In this document: positions 1,995 to 60,568 of the stretch, piece by piece | How positions within the stretch are numbered: position 1 is the stretch's first letter | How the letters are laid out: the number at the start of each line of letters is the position of its first letter | NCBI GenBank assembly: GCA_024681775.1 | Contig: JAILAF010000022.1 | Span: forward strand, 80-64,079 | Origin: Lachnospiraceae bacterium | Lineage (GTDB): Bacteria > Bacillota > Clostridia > Lachnospirales > Lachnospiraceae | Direction: 5' to 3' | Length of the DNA stretch: 64,000 nt | Made by a program: the position numbers and the translations under genes | The notes under the pieces: generated by a model | What the model was told of the DNA's origin: nothing | The model's input: the letters and a program-made list of their open reading frames with translations, nothing else | The model's database searches: none

Positions 1995-3584
1995 TTATAG
2001 AGGAAGCATCTTCACGTCGCCGGCAACTTTGGCGAATTTACAGTAGCGGTAGCTGGACTGGATCGTCATGGACAGATCGCCGATGACGATAGTGGTGCCG
2101 GGATAGACCTCGCCGGTGACCCGGACCTCGGACTTCTTATCGGGATCAAAGATGGCGGAGAGCTCCTTGAGTTCCTCGTTCTTCGCAGTGAGTTCGTTCT
2201 TCTTCACCTCAATGGTGGCCACCATCTGCTTGACGTAGTTCAGCTGGTCCTCGGAGAAACGGGCGCCCTTGGCCTTTTTCTCCATGAAGTTCTGGACGAT
2301 GGGCTGGGCGTTCTTGATGACGGCTACGGTCTCCGCGATCTCCTTCTGGAGCATGGTGTAGCGGGCCTTCAGCTTGGGATTGGTACCCACCTCCACGATG
2401 GTGCTGGCGCCCATCTCCGCACCCAGGGTACGGACCTCCACCAGGGAGTCCGCCTGGACCTTGCCGCCGGTGATGAATCCGTGCTTGCCGGTGACGGTGA
2501 TCTCGGTTCCGGAGGTGACATTGCTGTGGAGGATGGACTCGGTACTGACGTACCCTTCCGCTTCCACGGTGGCATTCTCGATGAATTTCGATACCACATT
2601 GCCGCCGGCGATGAGGATGCCCTTGGACATGCCCTTCATGCCCTTGGAGATGATGATATTGCCGCCTGCCTCGACTCTGGCGCCTTCCACCACACCCTTG
2701 ACGATGACGTCACCCGTGGCCTTCACAACGAAATTGGTGTCGATATTTCCGTTTACCTGGACACTGCCGTTAAAGTCGATGTTGCCGGTGGCGGTGCCCA
2801 CGTTCTCTACTTCATAGACATTGGAGACGAAGACCTGCCCGCCCACCAAAGTGACATGTCCGTCAACATTGGAGATGAGGCTCAAGCGATCCTCGGACAG
2901 GGTGATATTGGCGCCGTGCTCTAAGCGGGCGCGCTTTACCTCTCTGGGCTTTAAGCGGTTGCCCTGGAGGTTCATGCCGTACTCGCCCTCATCCGCGGGG
3001 ATGATCCGGGCCAGGACCTGCCCCTTGGAGCAGGGTCGCACCAGGTTCAGGCTGAAGAAGTCCACGGTGCCGTCTTCCTTCACGTCGGGCTTCGCATCCA
3101 CGTTGGTATCGAAATAGTACTCGATCCGGGCGTCGGTGCCATGGCGGGGCGGCTTGCCGACCGCGATGGGCAGATTAAAGCAATAGTACCCGGCGCTGTT
3201 AAAATGCTGATCGATGATCTTGTCCTGGAGTCCGAAGCGGATATTCCGGAAAGGCATATCGTTTTTGAACTCGGCAGCGCTCATACGCTCTCCGGTATCG
3301 GAGGGCGGGAAAAAGCGGGCGAAGGCTTTCATGTTATCCTCGGAGACATTCAGGACATAGGTCTCCCGGATGGCGGGGCACTCTCCGCTTCCCAGCGGTA
3401 CCACCACTTCCTCGCCCTTATCCGCAGCTTCCTTCAGAACCTTCAGATCGTAGTTCAGATTGTGGGTATCCAGGTAGTTCATGACCTCCTGGATGTTGAT
3501 CCCCTCGCCGCCGTCCACGGGCGCAAAGAACTTGATCCCGTAGCCGTCCGACGTTTTTACGACCTTGAAAAACGCATTTTTCAT
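1995..3584 (-). CDS. fapA: FapA family (DUF342) flagellar assembly protein
   Basis: Start reassigned to MKNAFFKVV (ATG at 3584). Motifs VGKPPRHGTDARIEYYF, GTVDFFSLN, VENVGTATGNIDFNGSVQVNG and beta-helix repeats are typical of DUF342. Confidence 0.9.
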   Translation of the reverse strand: MKNAFFKVVKTSDGYGIKFFAPVDGGEGINIQEVMNYLDTHNLNYDLKVLKEAADKGEEVVVPLGSGECPAIRETYVLNVSEDNMKAFARFFPPSDTGERMSAAEFKNDMPFRNIRFGLQDKIIDQHFNSAGYYCFNLPIAVGKPPRHGTDARIEYYFDTNVDAKPDVKEDGTVDFFSLNLVRPCSKGQVLARIIPADEGEYGMNLQGNRLKPREVKRARLEHGANITLSEDRLSLISNVDGHVTLVGGQVFVSNVYEVENVGTATGNIDFNGSVQVNGNIDTNFVVKATGDVIVKGVVEGARVEAGGNIIISKGMKGMSKGILIAGGNVVSKFIENATVEAEGYVSTESILHSNVTSGTEITVTGKHGFITGGKVQADSLVEVRTLGAEMGASTIVEVGTNPKLKARYTMLQKEIAETVAVIKNAQPIVQNFMEKKAKGARFSEDQLNYVKQMVATIEVKKNELTAKNEELKELSAIFDPDKKSEVRVTGEVYPGTTIVIGDLSMTIQSSYRYCKFAKVAGDVKMLPL

Positions 3585-3612
3585 ACTCCATCCCCCAAAT
3601 ATATAGCTTTTT

Positions 3613-3870
3613 TGCCGCTTTGGCGTAGCCAAACGTGCAGTCGAAGCGAAGCTGCGCAGCCATTTGTGTGCCGCTTTGGCGCAGCCAAACGTGCAGTCGA
3701 AGCGAAGCTTCACTGCGTCACTAATGGCGCAGCCATTTGTGTGCCGCTTTGGCGCAGCCAAACGTGCAGTCGAAGCGAAGCTGCGCAGCCATTTGTGTGC
3801 CGCTTTGGCGTAGCTAAACGTGCAGTCGAAGCGAAGCTTCACTGCGTCACTAATGGCGCAGCCATTTGTG
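3613..3870. repeat. Tandem array of four alternating 56/73-bp hairpin units (two 129-bp super-units)
   Basis: Units 3613-3668, 3669-3741, 3742-3797, 3798-3870 share tgccgctttggcg(t/c)agc(c/t)aaacgtgcagtcgaagcgaagct and gcgcagccatttgtg. The long units carry an extra tcactgcgtcactaatg. Confidence 0.97.
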
Positions 3871-3871
3871 A

Positions 3872-4648
3872 CTAGTCCCCAGTAAATACGTTCATATAAG
3901 GTCCCATGACTTTCTTCATCTTCCCCAGCGCTCTGGTGTGGAGCTGGGAAATGCGGGACTCGGAGACCTCCAGCACATTGGCGATCTCCTTTAGGGTCAG
4001 CTCCTCGTAGTAGTAGAGGGTGATGACCTTCTGTTCCTTCTCGGTCAGGGTCTGCAGAGCCTCACCCAGCTTCGCGGTGAGCTCCTGTTTTTCGATGTTC
4101 TCTTCGGGCCCGACGAAGCGGGCGGTGGTGCTGCTTTCGGAGGCCGCTGCGGAGACATCGCTTCCGGAATCCATAAATTCATCCAATGAAACGAGACCGG
4201 TTATCTTCATGGAAGAGAGCCAGTCTACGTATTCTTCATCGGTTATGCCAAGCTCCTGCGCGATCTCCTCGTCGGTGGCCACATGCCCCTTCTCGGCCTC
4301 GATCTTTTTCATGGCCTCATCGATCTGCTTTTGCTTGTTGCGCACGGTGCGCGGGATCCAGTCCATCTTGCGGATCTGGTCCAGGATGGAGCCGCGGATC
4401 CGGAGGCTGGCGTAGGTTTCGAACTTGACGTTCATCCCCAGGTCGAACTTGTCGATGGCATCGATGAGACCGAAGATCCCGTAGCTGCACAGGTCCTCGT
4501 ACTCCACATTGTGTCCCAGATACATGGACAGACGGCCCGCCACCAGCTTCACAAGGGGAGCATATTCCAGGATCATCTTCTCCCGCAGCTCGGGGGATTT
4601 GGTCTTGTCATAATCCTCTATTAACTTGCGCCTTGCAGCATCATCCAT
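3872..4648 (-). CDS. fliA: FliA/SigD (sigma-28) RNA polymerase sigma factor
   Basis: EDLCSYGIFGLIDAIDKFD, FETYASLRIRGSILDQIRKMDW and ELTLKEIANVLEVSESRISQLH regions. Confidence 0.97.
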   Translation of the reverse strand: MDDAARRKLIEDYDKTKSPELREKMILEYAPLVKLVAGRLSMYLGHNVEYEDLCSYGIFGLIDAIDKFDLGMNVKFETYASLRIRGSILDQIRKMDWIPRTVRNKQKQIDEAMKKIEAEKGHVATDEEIAQELGITDEEYVDWLSSMKITGLVSLDEFMDSGSDVSAAASESSTTARFVGPEENIEKQELTAKLGEALQTLTEKEQKVITLYYYEELTLKEIANVLEVSESRISQLHTRALGKMKKVMGPYMNVFTGD

Positions 4649-31420: not shown

Positions 31421-32329
31421 TTAAGATCTGCTGTAGGACAAAAGGCGGAGCTTGGCGCCGAGCTCTGCGAGCTCCGTATCGATCCCGCAGTCAAAAATGC
31501 CGCCGTCGGTCTCGATCATGCATTCCCCTTCGCCCAGGGCCATATCCTCCACGATCTCCAGGACCGCGCCGGGCATGGAAATGATGTCCGACAGTTCCTG
31601 CTTTCTGGAGGAGACGTAATCGAAGCTGTCCTTCCCCACATGCACAAAGTAACTGCGGCTGTCCTCCACCCGCTCCAGGGTCCGGCCGATGAGGAAGGCC
31701 AGGATCTCCTTGCGGGATTTTAAGTCCACCCGGAAGATATGACTGTAAATGTCGGTGATGGCATCCACCAGCTTGGGCTCCATCTCCGACAGCATGTCGT
31801 TGTATTCCTGCTGCAGGGCCAGTGCTTCCCCCCGCATGCGCTCCATCTGCTGTTCCAGCTCAGCGTTCGCCCGCTGGGATCCTTCCTGATATCCTTGCTC
31901 TCTGCCCGTCTCCACAGCGGAAGCCTTCAGGCTCTCCGCTTCATTCTGCGCATTGGCAGTGATCTGCGCGGCTTCTGCATTGGCCTGTGCCAGGATCTCC
32001 TCCGCACGGGCATTGGCCTGGGCGATGATGGACTCGGCATCTGCAGCAGCCTGGGCGTTTGCCGCCTCCCGCTCCTGCATGAGCCTTGCCAGGGTCTCCT
32101 CGTCCGGTTCCTCTCCCTCCGCAAAGCCTTCCGGTGCGACAAGGGGGATAGCGTCCGGATCGATCTCTTCCGCCATCAGGCCGGAGACAAAGCCGCCGTT
32201 TGATCCGCCGTTCGCTTTTGCGAGGGCCGCCAGATCCTCAATGCGCTTTGCCACCAGTTCATTGGTGTCGATGACCCGCTTTTCCGCGCCTCCGATATTT
32301 ATGTAAGAGGTTTTCAGTAGATTAGACAA
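31421..32329 (-). CDS. fliH: Flagellar assembly protein FliH
   Basis: Probable TTG start (MSNLLK) with a GGAGG RBS inside the end of fliG; GxxxG repeats GREQGYQEG; C-terminal IETDGGIFDCGI. Confidence 0.9.
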   Translation of the reverse strand: MSNLLKTSYINIGGAEKRVIDTNELVAKRIEDLAALAKANGGSNGGFVSGLMAEEIDPDAIPLVAPEGFAEGEEPDEETLARLMQEREAANAQAAADAESIIAQANARAEEILAQANAEAAQITANAQNEAESLKASAVETGREQGYQEGSQRANAELEQQMERMRGEALALQQEYNDMLSEMEPKLVDAITDIYSHIFRVDLKSRKEILAFLIGRTLERVEDSRSYFVHVGKDSFDYVSSRKQELSDIISMPGAVLEIVEDMALGEGECMIETDGGIFDCGIDTELAELGAKLRLLSYSRS

Positions 32330-33347
32330 TGATCTCGTCTCCTCCGCCTCTGGAAATAACGATCTCGCCCGCATCCTCCAGTCTTCGGATGATGTTGACG
32401 ATCTTCTGCTGTGCTTCCTCCACGTCCTTCATACGGACAGGTCCCATGAAGTCCATGTCCTCCTTGATCATGACAGCCAGACGCTTGGAAAGGTTGCCAA
32501 AGATCGCATTCTGCACCTGCTCGTTGGCACCCTTGAGGGCGATGCCAAGGTCGGAATTGTCCACCTCACGCAGCACACGCTGGATCGCGCGGTCGTCCAG
32601 GAGCAGCACGTCCTCGAAGACGAACATCTTCTTGCGGATCTCGTCTGCCAGCTCGGGCTCTTCGATCTCCAGAGATTCCATGATATGTTTCTCGGTACCG
32701 CGGTCCACGGAGTTGAGGATCTCCACCACGGAGTCCACGCCACCGATGATGGTGTAGTCCTGATTGACCAGGCTGGCCAGCTTGGATTCCAGCACGCGCT
32801 CCACCTCCTTGATGACGTCGGGGCTGGTTCTGTCCATGACGGCGATTCTGCGCGCCACGTCCGCCTGTCTGTCGGGAGGCAGACTGGAAATGATCTGGGC
32901 CGCCTGCTGGGGCGCCAGATAGGAAAGGATCAGGGCGATTGTCTGAGGATGCTCGTCCTGAATGAAGTTGATGAGCTGGGAAGCGTCGGTCTTGCGGACG
33001 AACTCGAAAGGCTTGACCTGCAGGGATGCAGTGAGTCTGCCGATGACATCCAGCGCCTTCTCACTGCCCAGGGACTTCTCCAGCAGCTCTCTGGCGTAGC
33101 CGATACCGCCTTCCGCGATGTATTGCTGTGCCAGACAGACTTCGTAGAATTCATTGATGACCGCTTCTTTGACCTGGGGAGTGACGCTGCGGGTATTGGC
33201 AATCTCCAGGGTGAGGGTCTCGATCTCCTCCTCCTTCAGATGCTTAAAGATCCCGGCAGAGCGCTCCGGTCCCAGAACTATGAGCAATATGGCGGCTTTC
33301 TGTACGCCGTTGATCTCCATCTCGGAAGCTGATCCACCTCTGGCCAT
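32322..33347 (-). CDS. fliG: Flagellar motor switch protein FliG
   Basis: KAAILL, PFEF, EHPQTIALIL, GGVDSV, MFVFED, LGIALKG. Confidence 0.98.
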   Translation of the reverse strand: MARGGSASEMEINGVQKAAILLIVLGPERSAGIFKHLKEEEIETLTLEIANTRSVTPQVKEAVINEFYEVCLAQQYIAEGGIGYARELLEKSLGSEKALDVIGRLTASLQVKPFEFVRKTDASQLINFIQDEHPQTIALILSYLAPQQAAQIISSLPPDRQADVARRIAVMDRTSPDVIKEVERVLESKLASLVNQDYTIIGGVDSVVEILNSVDRGTEKHIMESLEIEEPELADEIRKKMFVFEDVLLLDDRAIQRVLREVDNSDLGIALKGANEQVQNAIFGNLSKRLAVMIKEDMDFMGPVRMKDVEEAQQKIVNIIRRLEDAGEIVISRGGGDEIIV

Positions 33348-33385: not shown

Positions 33386-34987
33386 TCAGCCCCACTCGTC
33401 GGCCAGCCAGTTCCGCAGGAGGATGGCTGCAGCTTCGGGGTTCTCGTCCACGAATTTCTCGATCATCTTTCTGGTCTCGGACTTGGTCTCCACATCGATA
33501 TCCTCGATGGTAGGCTCGGGGTTGGACTGGAGCAGATCCTCCACGGAGATCTCCTCCGGCTCCTCCTGGGGCTTCTTGCCGGGGAGCATGTTCCGGAGCA
33601 CCACAAATGCCAGCAGGCCCAGGATCAGCAGGAAGAGCAGGGCGCTTAAGACCGTGGTCCAGCTGATGGCAAGGCCTTCCTTGTCGTAGAAAATGGGGGC
33701 TTCGTAAGCGATGATGGAAATATTGGCTGCCGGGAAGCCGCTGGCGTTGGCCACGGCCACCACCAGATCGTCCGTCACGGTCTGCCGCACCATATCGGAA
33801 TTGTTCAGCTTATACTCTTCCCAGGTGATGCCGTCCAGGAGTCCCTGGAGCTCCACGTCCTCCTGATGGACCGCCTTGTAGGAAATGGCGGCGATGGACA
33901 GGGAAGAATTGTTGTAATTGATGCTGCCTGCGGGAGTCACCTTATACTCGGCACTCTCGTTGGGCGCGTAATCGGTCTCCGTCTCGGTGACGGCGGAGGA
34001 GGAGTTGTCGTAATCACTGGTGACGTAGGTGGTGCCTTCCCCGTTGGAATCGGTGCCGGGGATGCCGCCCACGCCGCTCTCGTTCTCGGACTCGTAGTTC
34101 TCGTTATGGATGATCATACCCTCGGTACGGCCTTCGGGAGCGGAGTATTCCTTGACGGTCTTCTCGTAGTTGGAATAGTCCATGTCCAGATGGCTGGACA
34201 CTTCCACATTGTCGTACTGGTGGGTGCCGATCATGAAGCTCTTGATGGTATTGGCCACCTGGCACTCGGCCTGGGTCTGGAGCTCCAGCATGGAGCTTGC
34301 GATGCCGGCGGTGGAGTACTCATCTCCGCCTGCAAAGAGGAGCTCTGCGTTGTTGTCGACGATGGTGATCTTCGCCGTGGTGTCATTGCCCAGGGCGGTA
34401 GCGACGCATCTGGCCACATAGGCTGCATTGGAAGAGGTGAAGTACCCGTTGGTCTCCAGCTGCACATAGGCGCCGGCTTCCTCCTCCTGTGCGATGAGGG
34501 TGCCGTTTTGCTCGGGGATGGAAAGGGTAATCTTCGCACTCTTGATGGAATCGATGTTCTCCAGCATGCCCTCGATCCTGGACTCCAGGTAGAGCTGCTT
34601 CCGGAAGGCCCGCTCACTGGCGGTGGTGGACAGGGAGGATGCCAGGGCATCGTCCACGGTGAACTCATCCGCGACATAGCCGTCTGCGGCCAGTGCCAGC
34701 TCCGCCTTGGAAAGGGAGCCGGTCTCCACATCGATCTTCAGAGCGTCGGTGGAGATCTGGTAAGGGATGCCGTTGCTTTCCAGGATCTGCACCACCTGAT
34801 TGGACTGGGTGGTATTCTCGCAGGTCATGAGTCTGGTGTAACGGGGTCTGGAGACCACGTACACGATGACACCGAAAACAATGATGGTGAAGATCGTAAG
34901 GCCGATGATGATCCCCTTCTGCCTTCCGGTGAACTTCCCCCACCATTCCCTGATTCGATTGAGGATGTTTTGGATTTGTTCTGGCAT
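33386..34987 (-). CDS. fliF: Flagellar M-ring protein FliF
   Basis: Two TM segments flanking a large extracytoplasmic region; C-terminal ENPEAAAILLRNWL; between fliE and fliG. Confidence 0.93.
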   Translation of the reverse strand: MPEQIQNILNRIREWWGKFTGRQKGIIIGLTIFTIIVFGVIVYVVSRPRYTRLMTCENTTQSNQVVQILESNGIPYQISTDALKIDVETGSLSKAELALAADGYVADEFTVDDALASSLSTTASERAFRKQLYLESRIEGMLENIDSIKSAKITLSIPEQNGTLIAQEEEAGAYVQLETNGYFTSSNAAYVARCVATALGNDTTAKITIVDNNAELLFAGGDEYSTAGIASSMLELQTQAECQVANTIKSFMIGTHQYDNVEVSSHLDMDYSNYEKTVKEYSAPEGRTEGMIIHNENYESENESGVGGIPGTDSNGEGTTYVTSDYDNSSSAVTETETDYAPNESAEYKVTPAGSINYNNSSLSIAAISYKAVHQEDVELQGLLDGITWEEYKLNNSDMVRQTVTDDLVVAVANASGFPAANISIIAYEAPIFYDKEGLAISWTTVLSALLFLLILGLLAFVVLRNMLPGKKPQEEPEEISVEDLLQSNPEPTIEDIDVETKSETRKMIEKFVDENPEAAAILLRNWLADEWG

Positions 34988-35035
34988 GGTCCCTTCCCCT
35001 GCGTTTCGAAATATTTTACTCAGTTCCTAAAGTAT

Positions 35036-35443
35036 GAAAGACCACAGCTTGCTCAGGGCATGAAACATACATCGCGATTTAGCAAATGAGCGATTATGTT
35101 TTATGCACGGAGCAAGCGACACTAAGTTCAGAGTCTGCTTATGTCCATTCAGCTCATTTTCTAAACACGAAAGTCCGCAGCTTGCTTTGGGCATGAAACA
35201 CACATCGCGATTTAGCAAATGAGCGATTATGTTTTATGCACAGAGCAAGCGACACTAAGTTCAGAGTCCGCTTATGTCCATTCAGCTCATTTTCTAAACA
35301 CGAAAGCCCGCAGCTTGCTTTGGGCATGAAACATGCATCGCGATTTAGCAAATGAGCGATCATGTTTTATGCACGGAGCAAGCAACACTAAGTTCAGAAT
35401 CCGCTCAGTTCAAAAATGCAAAACGCTCATTTGCTAAATCGCG
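35036..35443. repeat. 133-bp tandem repeat (about 2.8 copies) with long internal hairpins and a terminal inverted copy of its 20-bp core
   Basis: Copies 35036-35168, 35169-35301, 35302-35405. Core cgcgatttagcaaatgagcg at 35073, 35206 and 35339; its reverse complement at 35424-35443. Confidence 0.97.
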
Positions 35444-35474
35444 TTTTACATTTATGAACTTCGCTGTGCTCAAC

Positions 35475-35810
35475 TTAGATCTGAATCTGCATTAACTCTT
35501 TATATGCCTCCAGCAATTTGTCGCGGATGGCCACGGTGTACTGCAGCGCGGTGGATGCTTTCTCCAGCGCGACGGTCAGGTCGTGGGTGCTGTCGGATTC
35601 GCCCAGGGCAAAGAGGATCTCCTGGTTCTCCGCATCGGACAGATAGGCATTGGTGGTCTGGATGTTGTCCAGGGCCGTGTTCAGGAAGGACTCGAACATA
35701 GTGCCCTCGGCCTTGGAGGAGTCGGCTCCCAGCCCGCGGACCACGCCGTTTGCGGAGGTTTTGTACAGGTCGGTCACGCCCTGCAGTTCTTTTAACAATG
35801 AGACGTCCAT
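35475..35810 (-). CDS. fliE: Hook-basal body protein FliE
   Basis: THDLTVALEKASTALQYTVAIRDKLLEAYKELMQIQI. Confidence 0.95.
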   Translation of the reverse strand: MDVSLLKELQGVTDLYKTSANGVVRGLGADSSKAEGTMFESFLNTALDNIQTTNAYLSDAENQEILFALGESDSTHDLTVALEKASTALQYTVAIRDKLLEAYKELMQIQI

Positions 35811-35853: not shown

Positions 35854-36306
35854 TCAGCTGTTGCCCATGTTCAGACCGCGCTGTGCGATGGACTTGCTGG
35901 CGTTGAAGGCGGTTGCGTTGGCCTCGTACGCACGGCTGGCATCGATGAGGTTGGTCATCTCGGTGATGATGTTGACATTGGGATAGGTCACATAGCCGTT
36001 CTCATCCGCATCCGGATTGGAGGGATCGTAGACCATGTTCATTTCGGTGGCCTTGTCCTCGAAGACTCCCGCCACTTTCACGCCCTTGCCGGCGTAATTC
36101 TTGGTGACGGTGCCCAGCACGGAGCTGAAGGAATCCGCACCGCGGACGCCCTTTTCTTCAAAAACCACCACCTTGCGGCGGTAGGGTGACCCGTCCTGGG
36201 TCCTGGTGGAATTGGCATTCGCCACGTTTTCAGAGATCACATCCATGCGATATCTCTGGGCAGTCAGGCCGGAGGCACTGATGTCAAAAGATGTAAAAAT
36301 TCCCAT
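35854..36306 (-). CDS. flgC: Basal body rod protein FlgC
   Basis: SASGLTAQRYRMDVISENVANA, PYRRK, YPNVN, EMTNLIDASRAYEAN. Confidence 0.98.
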   Translation of the reverse strand: MGIFTSFDISASGLTAQRYRMDVISENVANANSTRTQDGSPYRRKVVVFEEKGVRGADSFSSVLGTVTKNYAGKGVKVAGVFEDKATEMNMVYDPSNPDADENGYVTYPNVNIITEMTNLIDASRAYEANATAFNASKSIAQRGLNMGNS

Positions 36307-36327: not shown

Positions 36328-36717
36328 TTACTTCATAACGGACTGCAGATTCTGGAACTCCTGGCTGATGCTGTTCAGCAGTCCCTGGTATTTGAGCTGG
36401 TTCTGTGCCAGATACACGTTCTCGTTCTCGATATCCACGTTGTTGCCATCGGTGCGGTAGGAAAATCCGCCGTAGTCAACGTAGGCTCCCACCTGAAGCC
36501 GGCGGAGGTTTACCTTGGAAACCTTCTCATCCATGGAAACGAACCGGGCGGAGCCCAGCTCTTTGGAGAGAACGGATTCAAAGTCCACATCCTGGCGCTT
36601 GTAGCCGGGAGTGTCCACATTGGCAACATTGTTTGCGATGCACTCATTTCTCAGCCAGGAAGCGTCTGCAGCCCTGGTGAGGACATTGATGTAATCAAAA
36701 GCACCTGTGTTGATCAT
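36328..36717 (-). CDS. flgB: Basal body rod protein FlgB
   Basis: Start MINTGAF (36717); IANNVANVDTPGYKRQDV, RTDGNNVDIE. Confidence 0.97.
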   Translation of the reverse strand: MINTGAFDYINVLTRAADASWLRNECIANNVANVDTPGYKRQDVDFESVLSKELGSARFVSMDEKVSKVNLRRLQVGAYVDYGGFSYRTDGNNVDIENENVYLAQNQLKYQGLLNSISQEFQNLQSVMK

Positions 36718-36764
36718 ATTACCGCCTTTCCGGATCTGCATAGTCTCCCACGCATACATCCTTA

Positions 36765-36984: not shown

Positions 36985-37773
36985 TTACTTCAGGTTCTGC
37001 TGTCTCTTCAGCTCCTCGATCTCGGAGAAGACCACATCGTTCAGAACCTTGATGTAAGTGCCCTTCATGCCGGAGGACCGGGACTCGATGACGCCCGCAC
37101 TCTCGAACTTCCGCAGGGCGTTCACGATGACCGAGCGGGTGATCCCCACGCGATCCGCGATCTTGCTTGCGACCAGCACACCCTCCATGCCGTCCAGCTC
37201 GTCGAAGATGTGGACGATGGCCTCCATCTCCGAGAAGGAAAGGGTAGAGATGGCGGATTTTACCACCGCGATCTTGCGGCTCTCTTCCGCACTCTCCTCA
37301 CTGACGGCTCTCAGCATTTCCAGACCCACCACGGTGGTCCCGTACTCGCAGAGGATGATGTCGTCGATGTCATACTGCTCGTCCACCTTGTAGATGAAGA
37401 GGGTCCCAAGCCGCTCCCCGGCGATCTCGATGGGAGTGATGATGGCCCGGAAATGGTCGGTATCGGTCTTCTCGAATCCCAGGGTCCCCAGGTTCACATT
37501 TTCCTTCGTGGAAAGAATCCCCAGGAGCCGTTCGTTGAGCATGGGATCAATGAACCCGCCCACCTTCTGGTCCAGCAGCTCCGTGATGGGAGGAACGCCC
37601 TCCAGGAATCCCACTCCCAGGACCTTGCCTTTGCGGCTGATCACCAGAACATTGGACCCCAGGATGTCCCGCATCACCTTGCAGATGTCATTGAACACCA
37701 CCTTGCTGGAATTGTTGTTATGTAAGAGTTTGCCGATCTTTCTGGTCTTATCCAGAAGCTGTACACTGCTCAT
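36985..37773 (-). CDS. codY: GTP/BCAA-sensing global regulator CodY
   Basis: LLDKTRKI, GERLGTL, AISTLSFSE, wHTH ASKIADRVGITRSVIVNALRKFESAGVIESRSSGMKGTYIK. Confidence 0.98.
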   Translation of the reverse strand: MSSVQLLDKTRKIGKLLHNNNSSKVVFNDICKVMRDILGSNVLVISRKGKVLGVGFLEGVPPITELLDQKVGGFIDPMLNERLLGILSTKENVNLGTLGFEKTDTDHFRAIITPIEIAGERLGTLFIYKVDEQYDIDDIILCEYGTTVVGLEMLRAVSEESAEESRKIAVVKSAISTLSFSEMEAIVHIFDELDGMEGVLVASKIADRVGITRSVIVNALRKFESAGVIESRSSGMKGTYIKVLNDVVFSEIEELKRQQNLK

Positions 37774-37841: not shown

Positions 37842-37856
37842 AATTGACTGAAAATT
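37842..37856. promoter_or_regulatory. CodY box upstream of codY
   Basis: aattgactgaaaatt, 13/15 to AATTTTCWGAAAATT, 4 bp from the -35. Confidence 0.6.
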
Positions 37857-39934
37857 TAATCAACTTTTTCGGTAGTATTAGAAATTATGTGTCCACATTC
37901 TTTATTTGCGCACACCATTCGGTTTCCTTTTTCCACCATGTAGGAGCCGCACTCAGGGCAGCGTTCCTTCACGGGGCGGTTCCAGGACATGAAGTCGCAG
38001 TCCGGGAATCCCATGCAGCCGAAGTATCTGCGGCCTTTCTTGGACATGCGGATCACCACATCCTTTCCGCACTTGGGGCAGGGCACGCCGATACGCTCGT
38101 AGAAGGTCTTGGTATTGCGGCACTCGGGAAAATTGGGGCATGCCAGGAACTTGCCGTGGGGGCCGTACTTCACCACCATGTGAACGCCGCAGTTCTCACA
38201 GATCTCCTCGGAGACCTCGTCCTCGATCTTCACGTGCTCCAGCTCCTTCTCGGCAGCTTTCACGGCTTCGTCCAGATCGGGATAGAAATTGGCGATAACG
38301 GTCTTCCACTTTACGGTTCCCTCTTCCACGCTGTCCAGCAGGGTCTCCATATTGGCGGTAAAACGCAGGTCCACAATACTGGGGAAGGCCTGGTTCATCA
38401 TATCGTTCACCGCGTTGCCCAGCTCGGTGACAAAGAGATTTTTCTGCTCCTTGATCACATATCTGCGCTGCACCAGGTTGGTGATGGTGGGGGCGTAGGT
38501 GGAAGGTCTGCCGATGCCCTGTGCCTCCATCTCATGGACCAGCGCCGCCTCGGTATAGTGTGCGGGGGGCTGGGTGAAGTGCTGCTTCGGATCCAGGGTA
38601 AGGAGCTTTAACTTGCTCTTCTCGGAAATGGCAGCCTGGAGAGAATTGCTCTCCTCCTCTTCCTCGGTTTCGGTATAGACACTGCGGAAGCCGTCAAAGG
38701 TCACCCGCGCTGCGGACAAGGTAAAGATCTCCTCTCCCGCCTGGATGCGGACGGAGGTGGTCTCGTATTTTGCCTCTGCCATCTGGCTCGCCATGAAGCG
38801 CTTCCAGATCAGGGTGTAGAGGCGGTAGAGATCTCTGGGGAGCTGATCCTTCAGAGAGGAAGGGGTACGGTTCACGTCGGTGGGACGGATGGCCTCGTGT
38901 GCATCCTGGATCTTCTGTCCGGTCTTGCCGGCGGTCTCGGTGCTGCCCAGGTATTCCTTGCCGTAATTGGCATCGATGTATTTCTCCGCCTGCGTTCTTG
39001 CTTCGTCGGAGACACGGGTGGAATCGGTACGCAGGTAGGAAATGAGACCGACGGTGCCCTCGCCGCTGATCTCCACGCCTTCATAGAGCTGCTGTGCCAG
39101 GCGCATGGTCTTCTGGGTGGCGAAGTTCAGGGTCTTGCTGGCTTCCTGCTGCATGGTGGAGGTGGTGAAAGGCAGGGGGGACTTTCTGGTGCGCTCTCCC
39201 TTTTTCACTTCCTTCACGGTGAAGGCCTTCTTCTGAATGCTCTTCACCAGGTCTTCCACCTGCTTTTTGTTCTTCAGGTCCTGCTTGCCGGATGCGTTAC
39301 CGTAGTATTTTGCGGTAATGGGACGTTTCTGACCGTCCACCTCCAGGGAGGCGTCCAGGGTCCAGTACTCTTCGGGGACAAAGGCGTCGATCTCCTTCTC
39401 CCGGTCACAGACCATGCGAAGGGTTGCGGACTGTACACGGCCTGCGGATAGTTTGCCCTTGATCTTGGCCCAAAGGACGGGGGAAATGCGGTATCCCACC
39501 ATGCGGTCCAGAATACGGCGGGTCTGCTGTGCATTCACCAGATCCATATCGATCTCTCTGGGATGCTTTAAGGATTCCTTCACCGCTTTGCCGGTGATCT
39601 CGTTAAAGGTAATGCGGTAGGTGGGCTTCTCGTTCAGCTTCAGGGCGTAGTACAGATGCCAGGAGATTGCCTCTCCCTCACGGTCAGGGTCGGTTGCGAG
39701 GTAGACTTTTTCCGCCTTCTTCACTTCCTTGCGCAGATTGGAAAGCACGTCTCCCTTGCCGCGGATGGTGATGTACTTGGGCTCGTAATCGTTCTCCACG
39801 TCGATGCCCATGGTGCTCTTCGGCAGATCACGGACGTGGCCGTTGCTTGCCACGACCTGATAATTGTTTCCCAGAAATTTCTTAATGGTCTTCACCTTTG
39901 CAGGCGACTCCACGATCACCAGATATTTTGCCAT
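37856..39934 (-). CDS. topA: DNA topoisomerase I (type IA)
   Basis: VIVESPAK, ATDPDREGEAI, SAGRVQS, catalytic ISYLRTDS, two C-terminal zinc ribbons. Confidence 0.98.
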   Translation of the reverse strand: MAKYLVIVESPAKVKTIKKFLGNNYQVVASNGHVRDLPKSTMGIDVENDYEPKYITIRGKGDVLSNLRKEVKKAEKVYLATDPDREGEAISWHLYYALKLNEKPTYRITFNEITGKAVKESLKHPREIDMDLVNAQQTRRILDRMVGYRISPVLWAKIKGKLSAGRVQSATLRMVCDREKEIDAFVPEEYWTLDASLEVDGQKRPITAKYYGNASGKQDLKNKKQVEDLVKSIQKKAFTVKEVKKGERTRKSPLPFTTSTMQQEASKTLNFATQKTMRLAQQLYEGVEISGEGTVGLISYLRTDSTRVSDEARTQAEKYIDANYGKEYLGSTETAGKTGQKIQDAHEAIRPTDVNRTPSSLKDQLPRDLYRLYTLIWKRFMASQMAEAKYETTSVRIQAGEEIFTLSAARVTFDGFRSVYTETEEEEESNSLQAAISEKSKLKLLTLDPKQHFTQPPAHYTEAALVHEMEAQGIGRPSTYAPTITNLVQRRYVIKEQKNLFVTELGNAVNDMMNQAFPSIVDLRFTANMETLLDSVEEGTVKWKTVIANFYPDLDEAVKAAEKELEHVKIEDEVSEEICENCGVHMVVKYGPHGKFLACPNFPECRNTKTFYERIGVPCPKCGKDVVIRMSKKGRRYFGCMGFPDCDFMSWNRPVKERCPECGSYMVEKGNRMVCANKECGHIISNTTEKVD

Positions 39935-40023
39935 TCCCTGTTCCTCCGGGTGTGCCCGTTTCCGGGTTGTTCAAAAGTGCATATATCATTGATGACACGA
40001 ATTGCTCCGTTTCTTCGAAACTC

Positions 40024-40337
40024 TCGCAATTCTGCGAACATTCGGAATCCGCGAATTTACTGCGTAAATTGCTTCTTCCTCATGTTCGGGCGGGTCATAA
40101 ACCCTCAAAGCGATTCATGCAAGCATGATCGCATTTCGGTTTTTGCCCCTATCATCATATAGTAGAAATTGTTACATCGAGACAAGACTATACAACAAAA
40201 TTTTTTAGGATGCAAGTGCGGATTCATAATGCGTATCGCTCGGCGATACGCCCGCGCGAGCGCAGTGTTGCGCAGCGACAATTCACCATTCTGCGCGAGT
40301 CGCATCCATGCGGAGCAGTTATTTTTTGCATTTATGC
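40024..40337. repeat. Mosaic of short hairpins between tRNA-Glu and topA
   Basis: aatttac-tgc-gtaaatt (40054-70), gcgattcatgc-aa-gcatgatcgc (40110-32), gcgtatcgc-tcg-gcgatacgc (40231-51), tgttgc-gca-gcgaca (40266-80), ttattttttgcat-tt-atgcaaaaaaataa. Confidence 0.75.
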
Positions 40338-55585: not shown

Positions 55586-55658
55586 GCCAAAGATCCGACA
55601 TTCATGCTTGCATGAATGTCGGATCTTTGGCGACTGCGGTAAACCGAAAGACGCAGTC
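55586..55658. repeat. Perfect 46-bp palindrome plus an adjacent hairpin
   Basis: gccaaagatccgacattcatgc-tt-gcatgaatgtcggatctttggc (55586-55631); gactgcg...cgcagtc (55632-55658). Confidence 0.95.
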
Positions 55659-59167: not shown

Positions 59168-59194
59168 ATTTTTTCTCCTATTTTTCTCGATATC

Positions 59195-59324
59195 TACGGA
59201 TTTCTTCGCTTCGCTTTCGAAATCCGTACGTTTTCGCAATATCTGTTCCGCCTTCGGCGGGATATTGCTCAAACGTTTCGTTCGCCAAAGACGCAGTATC
59301 TTCTGCTAGCAGAGATACTGCGTC
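59195..59324. repeat. Three consecutive hairpins between pgk and tpiA
   Basis: tacggatttc/gaaatccgta around ttcgcttcgc; gcaatatc..ccgcc-ttc-ggcgg-gatattgc; gacgcagtatc(t)tctgc-ta-gcagagatactgcgtc. Confidence 0.9.
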
Positions 59325-59344
59325 CTCGGCTCACTTTATATCGC

Positions 59345-60568
59345 TCATTTATCATCTGCTGCAGCTACGCCAGGAAGAACCTTGCCCTCAAGGAACTCCA
59401 GGGAAGCGCCGCCACCGGTGGAAATGTGGCTCATCTTGTCGCCGAAGCCCAGCTGGTTGACAGCTGCTGCAGAGTCGCCGCCGCCGATGATGGTGGTGGC
59501 ATCAGTCTCTGCCAGGGCCTTGGCCACTGCGATGGTACCTGCAGCCAGAGTGGGATTCTCGAAGACGCCCATAGGTCCGTTCCAGACTACGGTCTTGGCA
59601 GACTTGACAGCCTCAGCATAGAGAGCCTGGGTTTTAGGTCCGATGTCGCAGCCCTCACGGTCTGCAGGCATCTTGTCGGCATCATAGACCTCGGTCTCAA
59701 CAGGGGCATCGATGGGATCAGGGAAAGCAGCGATGGTGACGGAGTCAACGGGAAGCAGCAGCTTCTTGCCCAGCTTCTGCGCCTTATCCATCATCTCCTT
59801 GCAGTAGTCAAGCTTCTCATTGTCTACCAGGGAGTTACCGATCTCCATTCCCTGTGCCTTCAGGAAGGTATATGCCATACCGCCGCCGATGATCAGGGTG
59901 TCGCACTTCTCCAGCAGGTTGTTGATCACGTTCAGCTTGTCTGCAACCTTAGCGCCGCCCAGGATGGCAACGAAAGGACGAACGGGATTCTCAACCGCAT
60001 TGCCCAGGAAGTTGATCTCCTTCTGCATCAGGTAGCCGACCACATTCTCGCCGCCCTTTGCGGTGATGAACTTGGTAACGCCTTCCACGGAAGCGTGTGC
60101 TCTGTGGGAGGAACCGAATGCGTCGCAAACATACAGGTCAGCCAGATCAGCCAGCTCCTTGGAGAACTCCTCGCCGTTCTTGGTCTCCTCAGCGCCGCGG
60201 AAACGGGTATTCTGCAGCAGGACCACATCGCCTTCCTTCATAGCCTCGACAGCCTTGGTAGCTGCTTCGCCGGTCACGTTGTAATCAGCGACGAAGACGA
60301 CTTCCTTGCCCAGCTTCTCGCTGAGTCTCTTTGCAACGGGTGCCAGGGACTCGCCCTCGTTGGGGCCGTTCTTCACCTTGCCCAGGTGAGAGCAAAGGAT
60401 CACCTTGCCGCCGTCATCGATCAGCTTCTGAATGGTGGGCAGAGCTGCAACGATTCTGGTCTCATCGGTGATCTCACCGTTCTTCAGAGGTACATTGAAA
60501 TCGCAGCGGACGAGAACTCTCTTGCCCTTTGCGTTGATGTCATCTACAGACTTTTTGTTTAATCCCAT
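59345..60568 (-). CDS. pgk: Phosphoglycerate kinase
   Basis: [54 protein letters not shown]. Confidence 0.98.

Follow-up and report, generated by a model that had tools for sequence, protein, structure and literature searches.

The spacer between the flagellar genes fliE and fliF of an uncultured rumen Lachnospiraceae bacterium carries an array of long hairpins, which is a local and recent tandem amplification of one module of about 133 bp. The copy number and architecture of this array vary between strains, and the array changes much faster than the genes that flank it. There is a somewhat better than even chance that it arose by slippage or recombination from a hairpin module, possibly one derived from the RNA family Clostridiales-1 (RF01699), and that it is co-transcribed with the operon and non-essential. 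The array was found in the window, i.e., the whole stretch of 64,000 nucleotides of DNA that was analysed; the sequence is also present in sheep, goat and bovine gut metagenomes, and among GTDB genomes a sheep-rumen MAG is the nearest (85% FlgC identity).

The array lies within a motility operon that is encoded entirely on the minus strand in the order flgB-flgC-fliE-[array]-fliF-fliG. The upstream gene is fliE (35475..35810; 111 aa; Pfam PF02049 FliE, E 3e-23), whose product is 99% identical to the protein cluster P0001, named FliE by one source, and the downstream gene is fliF (33386..34987; 533 aa; Pfam YscJ_FliF, E 4e-34, and YscJ_FliF_C). Also on the minus strand are topA (37856-39934), codY (36985-37773; Pfam CodY), flgB (36328-36759; Pfam FlgB), flgC (35854-36306; Pfam FlgC) and fliG (32322-33347; Pfam FliG). 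The order codY-flgB-flgC-fliE-fliF is known from the fla/che region of Bacillus subtilis, and the array therefore lies inside a long motility operon, as one of its spacers. The location between fliE and fliF given in the original prediction was correct, but the strand had been missed; with the flagellar genes encoded on the minus strand, the relevant RNA would be the reverse complement of the sequence described there.

The whole untranslated spacer, as defined by open reading frame coordinates and composition, spans 487 bp (34988..35474, minus strand) and has a GC content of about 0.42-0.44, as compared with about 0.58 in the flanking genes. Tandem Repeats Finder detected in it a repeat at 35036-35405 with a period of 133, 2.8 copies, 94% matches and 0 indels, and the repeat search placed the in-register copies at 35036, 35169 and 35302; together with the folds, these results confirmed the predicted 133-bp tandem array with hairpins of about 70 nt. 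Unit 1 (35036..35168, minus strand; 133 bp) is proximal to fliF and carries a hairpin at 35047-35117. Unit 2 (35169..35301, minus strand; 133 bp; hairpin 35180-35250) is 95% identical to unit 1, with 7 differences in 133 positions. Unit 3 (35302..35405, minus strand; hairpin 35313-35383), which is proximal to fliE and thus the first in the transcript, matches unit 1 over about 104 nt and is without the 15-nt segment GCTTATGTCCATTCA; its identity over the full 133 nt is only 78% because the final 30 nt or so continue into another hairpin, the cap. Each module consists of a leader, a quasi-palindromic hairpin of about 71 nt and a trailer, and the arms of the hairpin are 23 nt long and 87% complementary (35047-35069/35095-35117, and likewise at +133 and +266).

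The apex of the hairpin is a 25-mer, CATCGCGATTTAGCAAATGAGCGAT, which occurs three times on the plus strand and once inverted at 35422-35446 with 3 mismatches, as against 0 expected in 100 shuffles. Within it, the 20-nt core CGCGATTTAGCAAATGAGCG recurs in inverted orientation at 35424..35443 (minus strand), where all 20 of 20 nucleotides match 35073-35092, 35206-35225 and 35339-35358 on the opposite strand, exactly as predicted. This inverted core belongs to the cap (35408..35459, minus strand), a fourth hairpin with arms at 35408-35426/35441-35459 and a loop at 35427-35440, which was recognised from inverted repeats and folds. The cap is the first hairpin past the fliE stop on the sense strand, and its core is oriented opposite to that of the three units; its loop is perfectly complementary to the unit loops. 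In the spacer between the hairpins, the repeat search and motif positions revealed a degenerate core-like segment, GCTCATTTTCTAAA (35152..35165, minus strand), which is 13/14 complementary to the core loop and recurs at 35285-35298, with related copies at 35019-35031 and 35404-35416. The unit boundaries are marked by GCTCA (TGAGC on the sense strand) at 35152, 35285 and 35403, and the boundary at 35018, before the fliF flank, reads ACTCA (TGAGT on the sense strand). That flank (34988..35035, minus strand) is unique sequence with a ribosome-binding site, reading ...CAGGGGAAGGGACC ATG on the sense strand, and it also adjoins the single unit of a goat-gut strain (X8).

The 487-nt spacer folds far better than shuffled sequences, with z = -7.4 for the plus strand and -4.5 for the minus strand. 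An assembly artefact was ruled out, since contigs with a unit-to-unit junction were found in four gut metagenomes from two studies and short contigs of the metagenome X1 matched the copy-specific variants exactly, including those of unit 2. A CRISPR array was rejected as well: the entire 133-bp unit, including the segment between the hairpins, recurs at 95% identity, and unique spacers are lacking. The likeness of the apex ATTTAGCAAAT to a CodY box amounted to 6/15 by eye and was rejected, and that of GTTGAGC to the integron attC consensus GTTRRRY was discarded, given that neither a cassette structure nor a partner site is present.

The fliE-fliF spacer was 11-83 bp long in 75 of the 80 related genomes (one of these values being an overlapping gene estimate); two others had 105-106 bp and the remaining three 201-222 bp. 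The predicted addition of roughly 430 bp to a normally short spacer agreed well with the 430-460 bp estimated here. No record of the exact FliE protein was found, and conspecific variants were drawn from the eight contigs of the FliE cluster P0001 (99% identical), in which the fliE DNA is 87-94% identical to that of the window. While the window carries the cap and three units in 487 bp, the strains L083 and L085 have a 105-bp remnant with only the 5' half of one hairpin and no core. L086 has no cap; one unit, which like that of L089 is 93% identical to unit 1, is followed by a second hairpin with different arms (CGGTTCACGAAAGC/GCTTTCGTGAACCG) and the core in sense orientation. L087 starts with the cap, like the window. 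In L089, one unit directly after the stop codon is followed by a cap-like hairpin, whose apex has given way to about 80 nt of different hairpin sequence. The goat-gut run X8 has the cap and exactly one unit, joined to the fliF-proximal flank. In the bovine metatranscriptome X21, fliE is followed by 5 nt and one unit with no cap, and in the metatranscriptome X9 the order is fliE, cap, one unit, about 60 nt and a sense-oriented core. Contigs of both metatranscriptomes thus join fliE to the cap or hairpin, in data that carry no strand information, derive from relatives and may include DNA.

In a sister species (FliE cluster P0002, 85% protein identity), strains with 99-100% identical fliE DNA have a spacer of 50, 233/234 or 258 bp. 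Of the long allele, the 50-bp allele has retained an internal fragment of 22 nt, and the ATTTGA and CACG direct repeats at its boundaries mark it as a double-deletion derivative. The 233- and 258-bp alleles differ in how many 12-nt repeats they contain; in L091 (3511-3560) and L095 (1177-1250), a run of CAGCATCACAGT-like 12-nt repeats lies just upstream of the fliF ribosome-binding site, and their number differs between the two by a 24-nt indel. In addition, the 222-bp fliE-fliF spacer of another relative (L007 4844-5067) contains several hairpins and its own direct repeat of about 50 nt (90% identical), which was recognised neither by Rfam nor by the four-copy Clostridiales-1 model described below. 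The variability in copy number proposed in the original prediction was borne out between close strains by these comparisons of assembled contigs; in a contingency locus (copy-number phase variation), repeat number would also vary within a clonal population and change expression. The fliE-fliF junction of this Lachnospiraceae clade is a hot spot, with spacers of 105-487 bp at 87-100% fliE nucleotide identity. Such spacer differences could change the dosage of flagellar genes between strains; the flagellins of gut Lachnospiraceae are known immune targets.

The single-unit alleles preserve a trace of how the array may have formed. A module present in one copy is flanked on both sides by the same 5-mer, TGAGC/TGAGT, which is the signature of a first duplication mediated by microhomology and followed by unequal exchange. 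An origin of the array by slippage or unequal exchange at microhomologies is thus suggested by the junctions. The first duplication would have occurred by slipped-strand mispairing or unequal exchange between the TGAGC/TGAGT microhomologies, a second step of homologous unequal exchange would have produced three copies, and the short alleles would represent deletions between other direct repeats of 4-7 nt. Further TGAGC motifs are present within the core and in the outer stem, so that the assignment of unit boundaries is less clean and a fixed insertion target is conceivable. The locus resembles known microhomology tandem duplication and quasi-palindrome template switching in that the units are bounded by 5 nt, the deletion alleles are bounded by 4-7 nt and the arms change in concert; unlike an element family, however, these are processes, which explain an origin and assign no function. 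The age of the amplification can be judged from one mutation. On the sense strand, an A·C mismatch (G·U on the plus strand) is common to all three window units at a pair that is A-U in L086 and L089, which indicates that the amplification is younger than that mutation.

The inverted cores had also been proposed to mediate inversion, and recombination between the cap and unit cores might in principle constitute an invertible, phase-variable switch that toggles fliF and the downstream genes. The exact inverted 20-nt repeats, which extend to 41-51 nt at 76-80% complementarity and lie 23-289 bp apart, would suit such a switch. However, no inversion joint was found in the contigs of any of the 12 runs compared with the locus, no recombinase gene is adjacent, the segment that would be flipped is itself nearly palindromic and devoid of a promoter, and the observed architectures are accounted for by duplication and deletion. 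The predicted inversion product was thus not seen, and a switch of this kind appears extremely unlikely.

The array element exists at the fliE-fliF locus only. The original prediction had likened the cluster to a MITE/REPIN-type unit, a reading that called for dispersed copies of the core. Sensitive blastn detected no other copy within the 64-kb window, and the exact 20-nt core had 0 matches among 185,579 GTDB species genomes (one genome per species) and 0 matches in viral contigs; blastn against plasmids and phages likewise gave no match to the array. When one unit was used as query at 80% likeness in the four metagenomes that hold the strain, foreign flanks were absent from every contig, and the only sequence running off the query was the cap. 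The only matches to the core in JGI metagenomes were two exact 20-mers (L001 2188-2207 and L002 705-724), both inside the orfB gene of an IS3-family transposase on unrelated contigs, where the 20-mer encodes RDLANER. As they lie at the homologous position, they were counted as one event, and they were judged to be a chance match rather than a real second locus.

These results bear on the possibility that a non-autonomous mobile element (MITE-, REPIN- or PATE-like) was inserted at a TGAGC target and then multiplied. The cap differs from L083 by a 65-nt indel with TGAGC at both ends and has inverted termini, and TGAGC recurs at the module junctions, as would be expected of such an insertion. Against it stand the lack of any other copy in the window, in the 185,579 GTDB genomes and in viral contigs, plasmids and phages, and the lack of foreign flanks in the metagenomes holding the strain. 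Moreover, the direct repeats that flank the sister-species alleles (ATTTGA, CACG) differ in length and sequence, which points to slippage or recombination and away from a transposase. MITEs have terminal inverted repeats with target-site duplications of fixed length at multiple loci, whereas the cap is confined to a single locus and its flanking repeats vary. REP, BIME and REPIN elements occur in many dispersed copies per genome, and a REP is a GC-rich palindrome of about 20-40 nt with a conserved 5' tetranucleotide and an associated RAYT transposase; the present element is not dispersed, its hairpin is 71 nt long and the region has a GC content of about 0.42. A mobile element is therefore considered very unlikely at this locus, and amplification in place is preferred.

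The hairpin is real, but its covariation is no better than that of shuffled controls. The alignment consisted of the three window units and the single units of the conspecific contigs L086 and L089 (5 variants, 29 pairs). Of the 29 pairs, 24 were invariant, one showed a wobble, one an A-U to G-C swap and three deviated only by unpaired cells, of which the whole table contained 7. The A-T to G-C swap between copies 1 and 3 reported in the original prediction is thus real; the structure-selected covariation that had been read from it was not supported, as only 1 of 29 pairs was compensated and equal covariation was reached in 98 of 500 shuffles. The lone compensatory pair would be explained as well by templated correction within a quasi-palindrome as by selection. 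The assignment of a strand from G-U pairs was uninformative in this alignment, since one wobble favours each strand.

If the array were a structure-selected functional RNA, i.e., a cis-regulator or small RNA controlling expression downstream of fliE, the hairpin, with its conserved 14-nt loop, would be recognised by a protein or by a loop complementary to it, as in kissing between cap and unit. The perfect complementarity of the cap loop to the unit loops would fit this, and so would the 19-20-nt apex, which is identical in three stem contexts (main hairpin, cap and second L086 hairpin), the compensated pair and the strong folding z-scores. However, the apex is found in both orientations on one strand, an arrangement incompatible with a strand-specific RNA signal, and strains of the same species are without it. 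The covariation is not significant, and neither a match to an Rfam family nor an own promoter or terminator was found. With the gathering threshold for the whole window and E <= 10 for the locus, Rfam reported no family over the array and only spurious microRNA-like hairpin matches, and the scan of 34988-35474 revealed no sigma-70-like promoter and no intrinsic (Rho-independent) terminator on either strand. An intrinsic terminator or attenuator was therefore dismissed, a GC-rich stem with a U tract being absent. The array contains two ORFs on the sense strand (63 and 69 aa), but these were rejected as a protein product, as they have no Pfam match and are missing in conspecific strains. There is no evidence for an independent small RNA or protein product from the array, and we regard a structure-selected functional RNA as quite improbable. 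A literature search on fliE/fliF stem-loops and Lachnospiraceae palindromic repeats returned nothing relevant.

The amplified module is probably related to a named RNA family that the original prediction had missed, even though it occupies the exact site of the array in relatives. Clostridiales-1 was described as 'probably an RNA, probably not cis-regulatory', with unknown function (Weinberg et al. 2010, PMC2864571). Canonical RF01699 copies were detected in sister species, in the fliE-fliF spacers of L093 (113.5 bits), L013 (102 bits), L091 (99 bits), L095 (95 bits) and L003 (93 bits), where the Rfam gathering threshold is 48 bits, and all of them lie on the sense strand and start at the fliE stop codon. 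By blastn, the sister-species spacer matches 39998-40135 of the window, which is inside one of the only two RF01699 matches that the window contains at the gathering threshold (39990-40157 and 59188-59343). The array is thus positionally homologous to the RF01699 members of relatives.

By the family's own model, however, the array is not a member of Clostridiales-1. RF01699 gave no match at 34900-35600 even at E <= 10, and so the array stays below the gathering threshold; the architecture of the family, in which a closing stem encloses three hairpins, with an apical loop of GCUUGC and the conserved internal loops UGAGCA.../CGGAAUGCGAA, is not found in it. Our own Clostridiales-1 model R1, which was built from four canonical copies, recovered 7 of 7 known copies in 722 kb and nothing else significant, and its best match on the spacer with filters off was of the cap to hairpin 1 (9.4 bits, E 0.016). 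In local alignment, the main hairpin resembled hairpin 1 of the window's own RF01699 copy with z = 4.5, better than 199 of 200 shuffles, a similarity that is marginal once the roughly 30 comparisons made are counted. By eye, the stretch past the cap, UGAGC/GGAUUCUGAAC...UUAGUG, resembles the internal-loop strands of hairpin 2 with the apex deleted, and the fliE stop codon lies within a hexamer, CUAAGU, that is able to pair with ACUUAG. The alignment restricted to hairpin 1 was heterogeneous, with 5 consensus pairs.

Because the array fails the RF01699 model and the similarity of its modules is marginal, its descent is argued mainly from position. The array occupies the place of a Clostridiales-1 element and probably descends from one, and the window hairpins are probably rearranged, diverged hairpin modules of such an element. 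The family, like the array, consists of AT-rich multi-hairpin modules in spacers between co-directional genes, and it too shows a pattern of the same apex on different stems. Unlike the family, the array is one hairpin triplicated in tandem with an inverted apex, lacking the three-hairpin closing-stem architecture, and its apex loop is UCAUUUGCUAAAUC, whereas the conserved loop of the family is GCUUGC.

Several features of Clostridiales-1 were observed beyond the array. Most RF01699 copies in the present data, including those at the fliE site, abut a stop codon on the sense strand. Of the two window copies (both minus strand; 123 bits for 39990-40157 and 72 bits for 59188-59343), the latter starts 1 nt past the TGA that closes the co-directional ORF upstream (59345-60568), and about 20 nt separate its end from the ATG of the next gene (about 59166); the former lies between a tRNA with its terminator and the start of topA. 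A perfect palindrome with 22-bp arms, GCCAAAGATCCGACATTCATGC / GCATGAATGTCGGATCTTTGGC, was found at 55586-55631 (minus strand); its apex CAUGCAAGCAUG and trailing UCGUUGCGAAC resemble a solitary hairpin 1 of Clostridiales-1, a terminator-like hairpin follows, and the match to model R1 is weak (20.6 bits, E 0.079). The sister-species strains L091 and L093 are 95-100% identical per 100 nt over 3 kb and only 79/100 identical in the 100-nt stretch that includes, at 3336-3400 of both contigs, hairpin 1 of their Clostridiales-1 copy and its 5' closing strand, with at least 7 stem changes compensated by our own count from the alignment. Judged from this alignment, the difference looks like module replacement, perhaps by gene conversion from another copy, rather than drift by point mutation. 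In a relative with 79% FliE identity, the fliE-fliF spacer is 20 bp and the flgC-fliE spacer is a hairpin-rich 189-219 bp (L100 1311-1501 and L105 304-494). This spacer holds a sub-threshold Clostridiales-1 copy in L100 (28.5 bits), and between L100 and L105, the fliE genes of which are 98% identical, the outer stem of the first hairpin differs wholly on both arms and remains fully paired, with the apex conserved. In the present data, Clostridiales-1 is thus found directly past stop codons between co-directional genes and with replacement at the level of single hairpins between near-identical strains, and the link to the hot spot offers a concrete and testable setting for the role of an orphan motif.

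With respect to function, co-transcription of the array with the operon is plausible, and the array would then form part of the operon mRNA. The four stable hairpins would most likely act like the intra-operon structures of the REP, ERIC and Correia type, and an effect on mRNA stability or on fliF expression may be suggested by this analogy. The hairpins would serve as barriers or processing sites for RNases, and the long structured gap would uncouple fliF from fliE. The number of units would modestly tune the ratio of the upstream rod-gene message to the downstream fliF message, and it would not be required for flagellar assembly. Since conspecific strains without a complete hairpin exist, the array is dispensable, and any effect on expression is non-essential. 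The strains lacking the hairpin show that the structure is not needed, which fits the view that it has no function at all equally well.

That view is the main rival: the array may be a pure by-product, i.e., neutral junk from hairpin-stimulated replication slippage in an unconstrained spacer, with no measurable effect on expression or fitness. It would account for the 105-bp remnant of the conspecific L083 and L085, for the 50-, 233- or 258-bp alleles of sister-species strains with 99-100% identical fliE, for covariation not above shuffled controls and for the lack of promoter or terminator signals. On the other hand, hairpin-rich elements persist at the fliE-fliF spacer in several species, and, to judge from REP and ERIC elements, a structured untranslated gap of 487 nt in an operon mRNA would probably have some influence on RNA decay or polarity. 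We hold the by-product view to be possible but unlikely, and retain a co-transcribed, non-essential array as the preferred reading.

The analogies that guide this reading are partial. REP, BIME and REPIN elements of Enterobacteria and Pseudomonas resemble the array in forming hairpin palindromes in transcribed operon spacers, in tandem and in alternating orientation, with copy numbers that differ between strains. REP elements act as 3'-exonuclease barriers and affect the expression of upstream genes; they are about 35 nt long and GC-rich, occur in hundreds of dispersed copies and are linked to RAYT transposases, whereas the array hairpin is 71 nt, AT-rich and confined to a single locus. The ERIC/IRU and Correia (CREE) elements are closer in size, at about 100-155 bp as compared with the 133-bp unit. 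They are imperfect palindromes that are co-transcribed within operons, where their hairpins alter mRNA stability or processing. Unlike the array, which is not dispersed and has variable flanking microhomologies, these families are MITE-like and dispersed, and their members have defined terminal repeats and target duplications.

By itself, the array is an ordinary locally amplified intergenic palindrome, and its novelty is modest: it occupies one locus, a hot spot of the flagellar operon, and is probably a diverged and amplified relative of an orphan family of hairpin RNAs. A wider reading is that Clostridiales-1-type clusters, including the diverged array, constitute a class of intra-operon RNA modules abutting stop codons, whose rapid modular turnover serves as a strain-level rheostat. 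The turnover would comprise tandem amplification, microhomology deletion and wholesale swapping of hairpins between copies, and what is tuned would be the stoichiometry of the genes in a long operon, for example fla/che of gut Lachnospiraceae. This reading is improbable on the present evidence; if true, it would for the first time place an orphan RNA family, described in 2010, in a functional context.

A second tandem-repeat spacer was observed in the same motility cluster at 3585-3871 of the window (minus strand), with the gene for a sigma factor of the SigD/FliA type (3872-4648) on one side and a FapA gene (start about 3584) on the other. It is unrelated in sequence to the fliE-fliF array, belongs to no Rfam family and has a fold z of only -2.3. 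Its repeat has a period of 129 in 2.0 copies with 97% matches, and a nested 56-nt period with small GC-rich hairpins lies within it.
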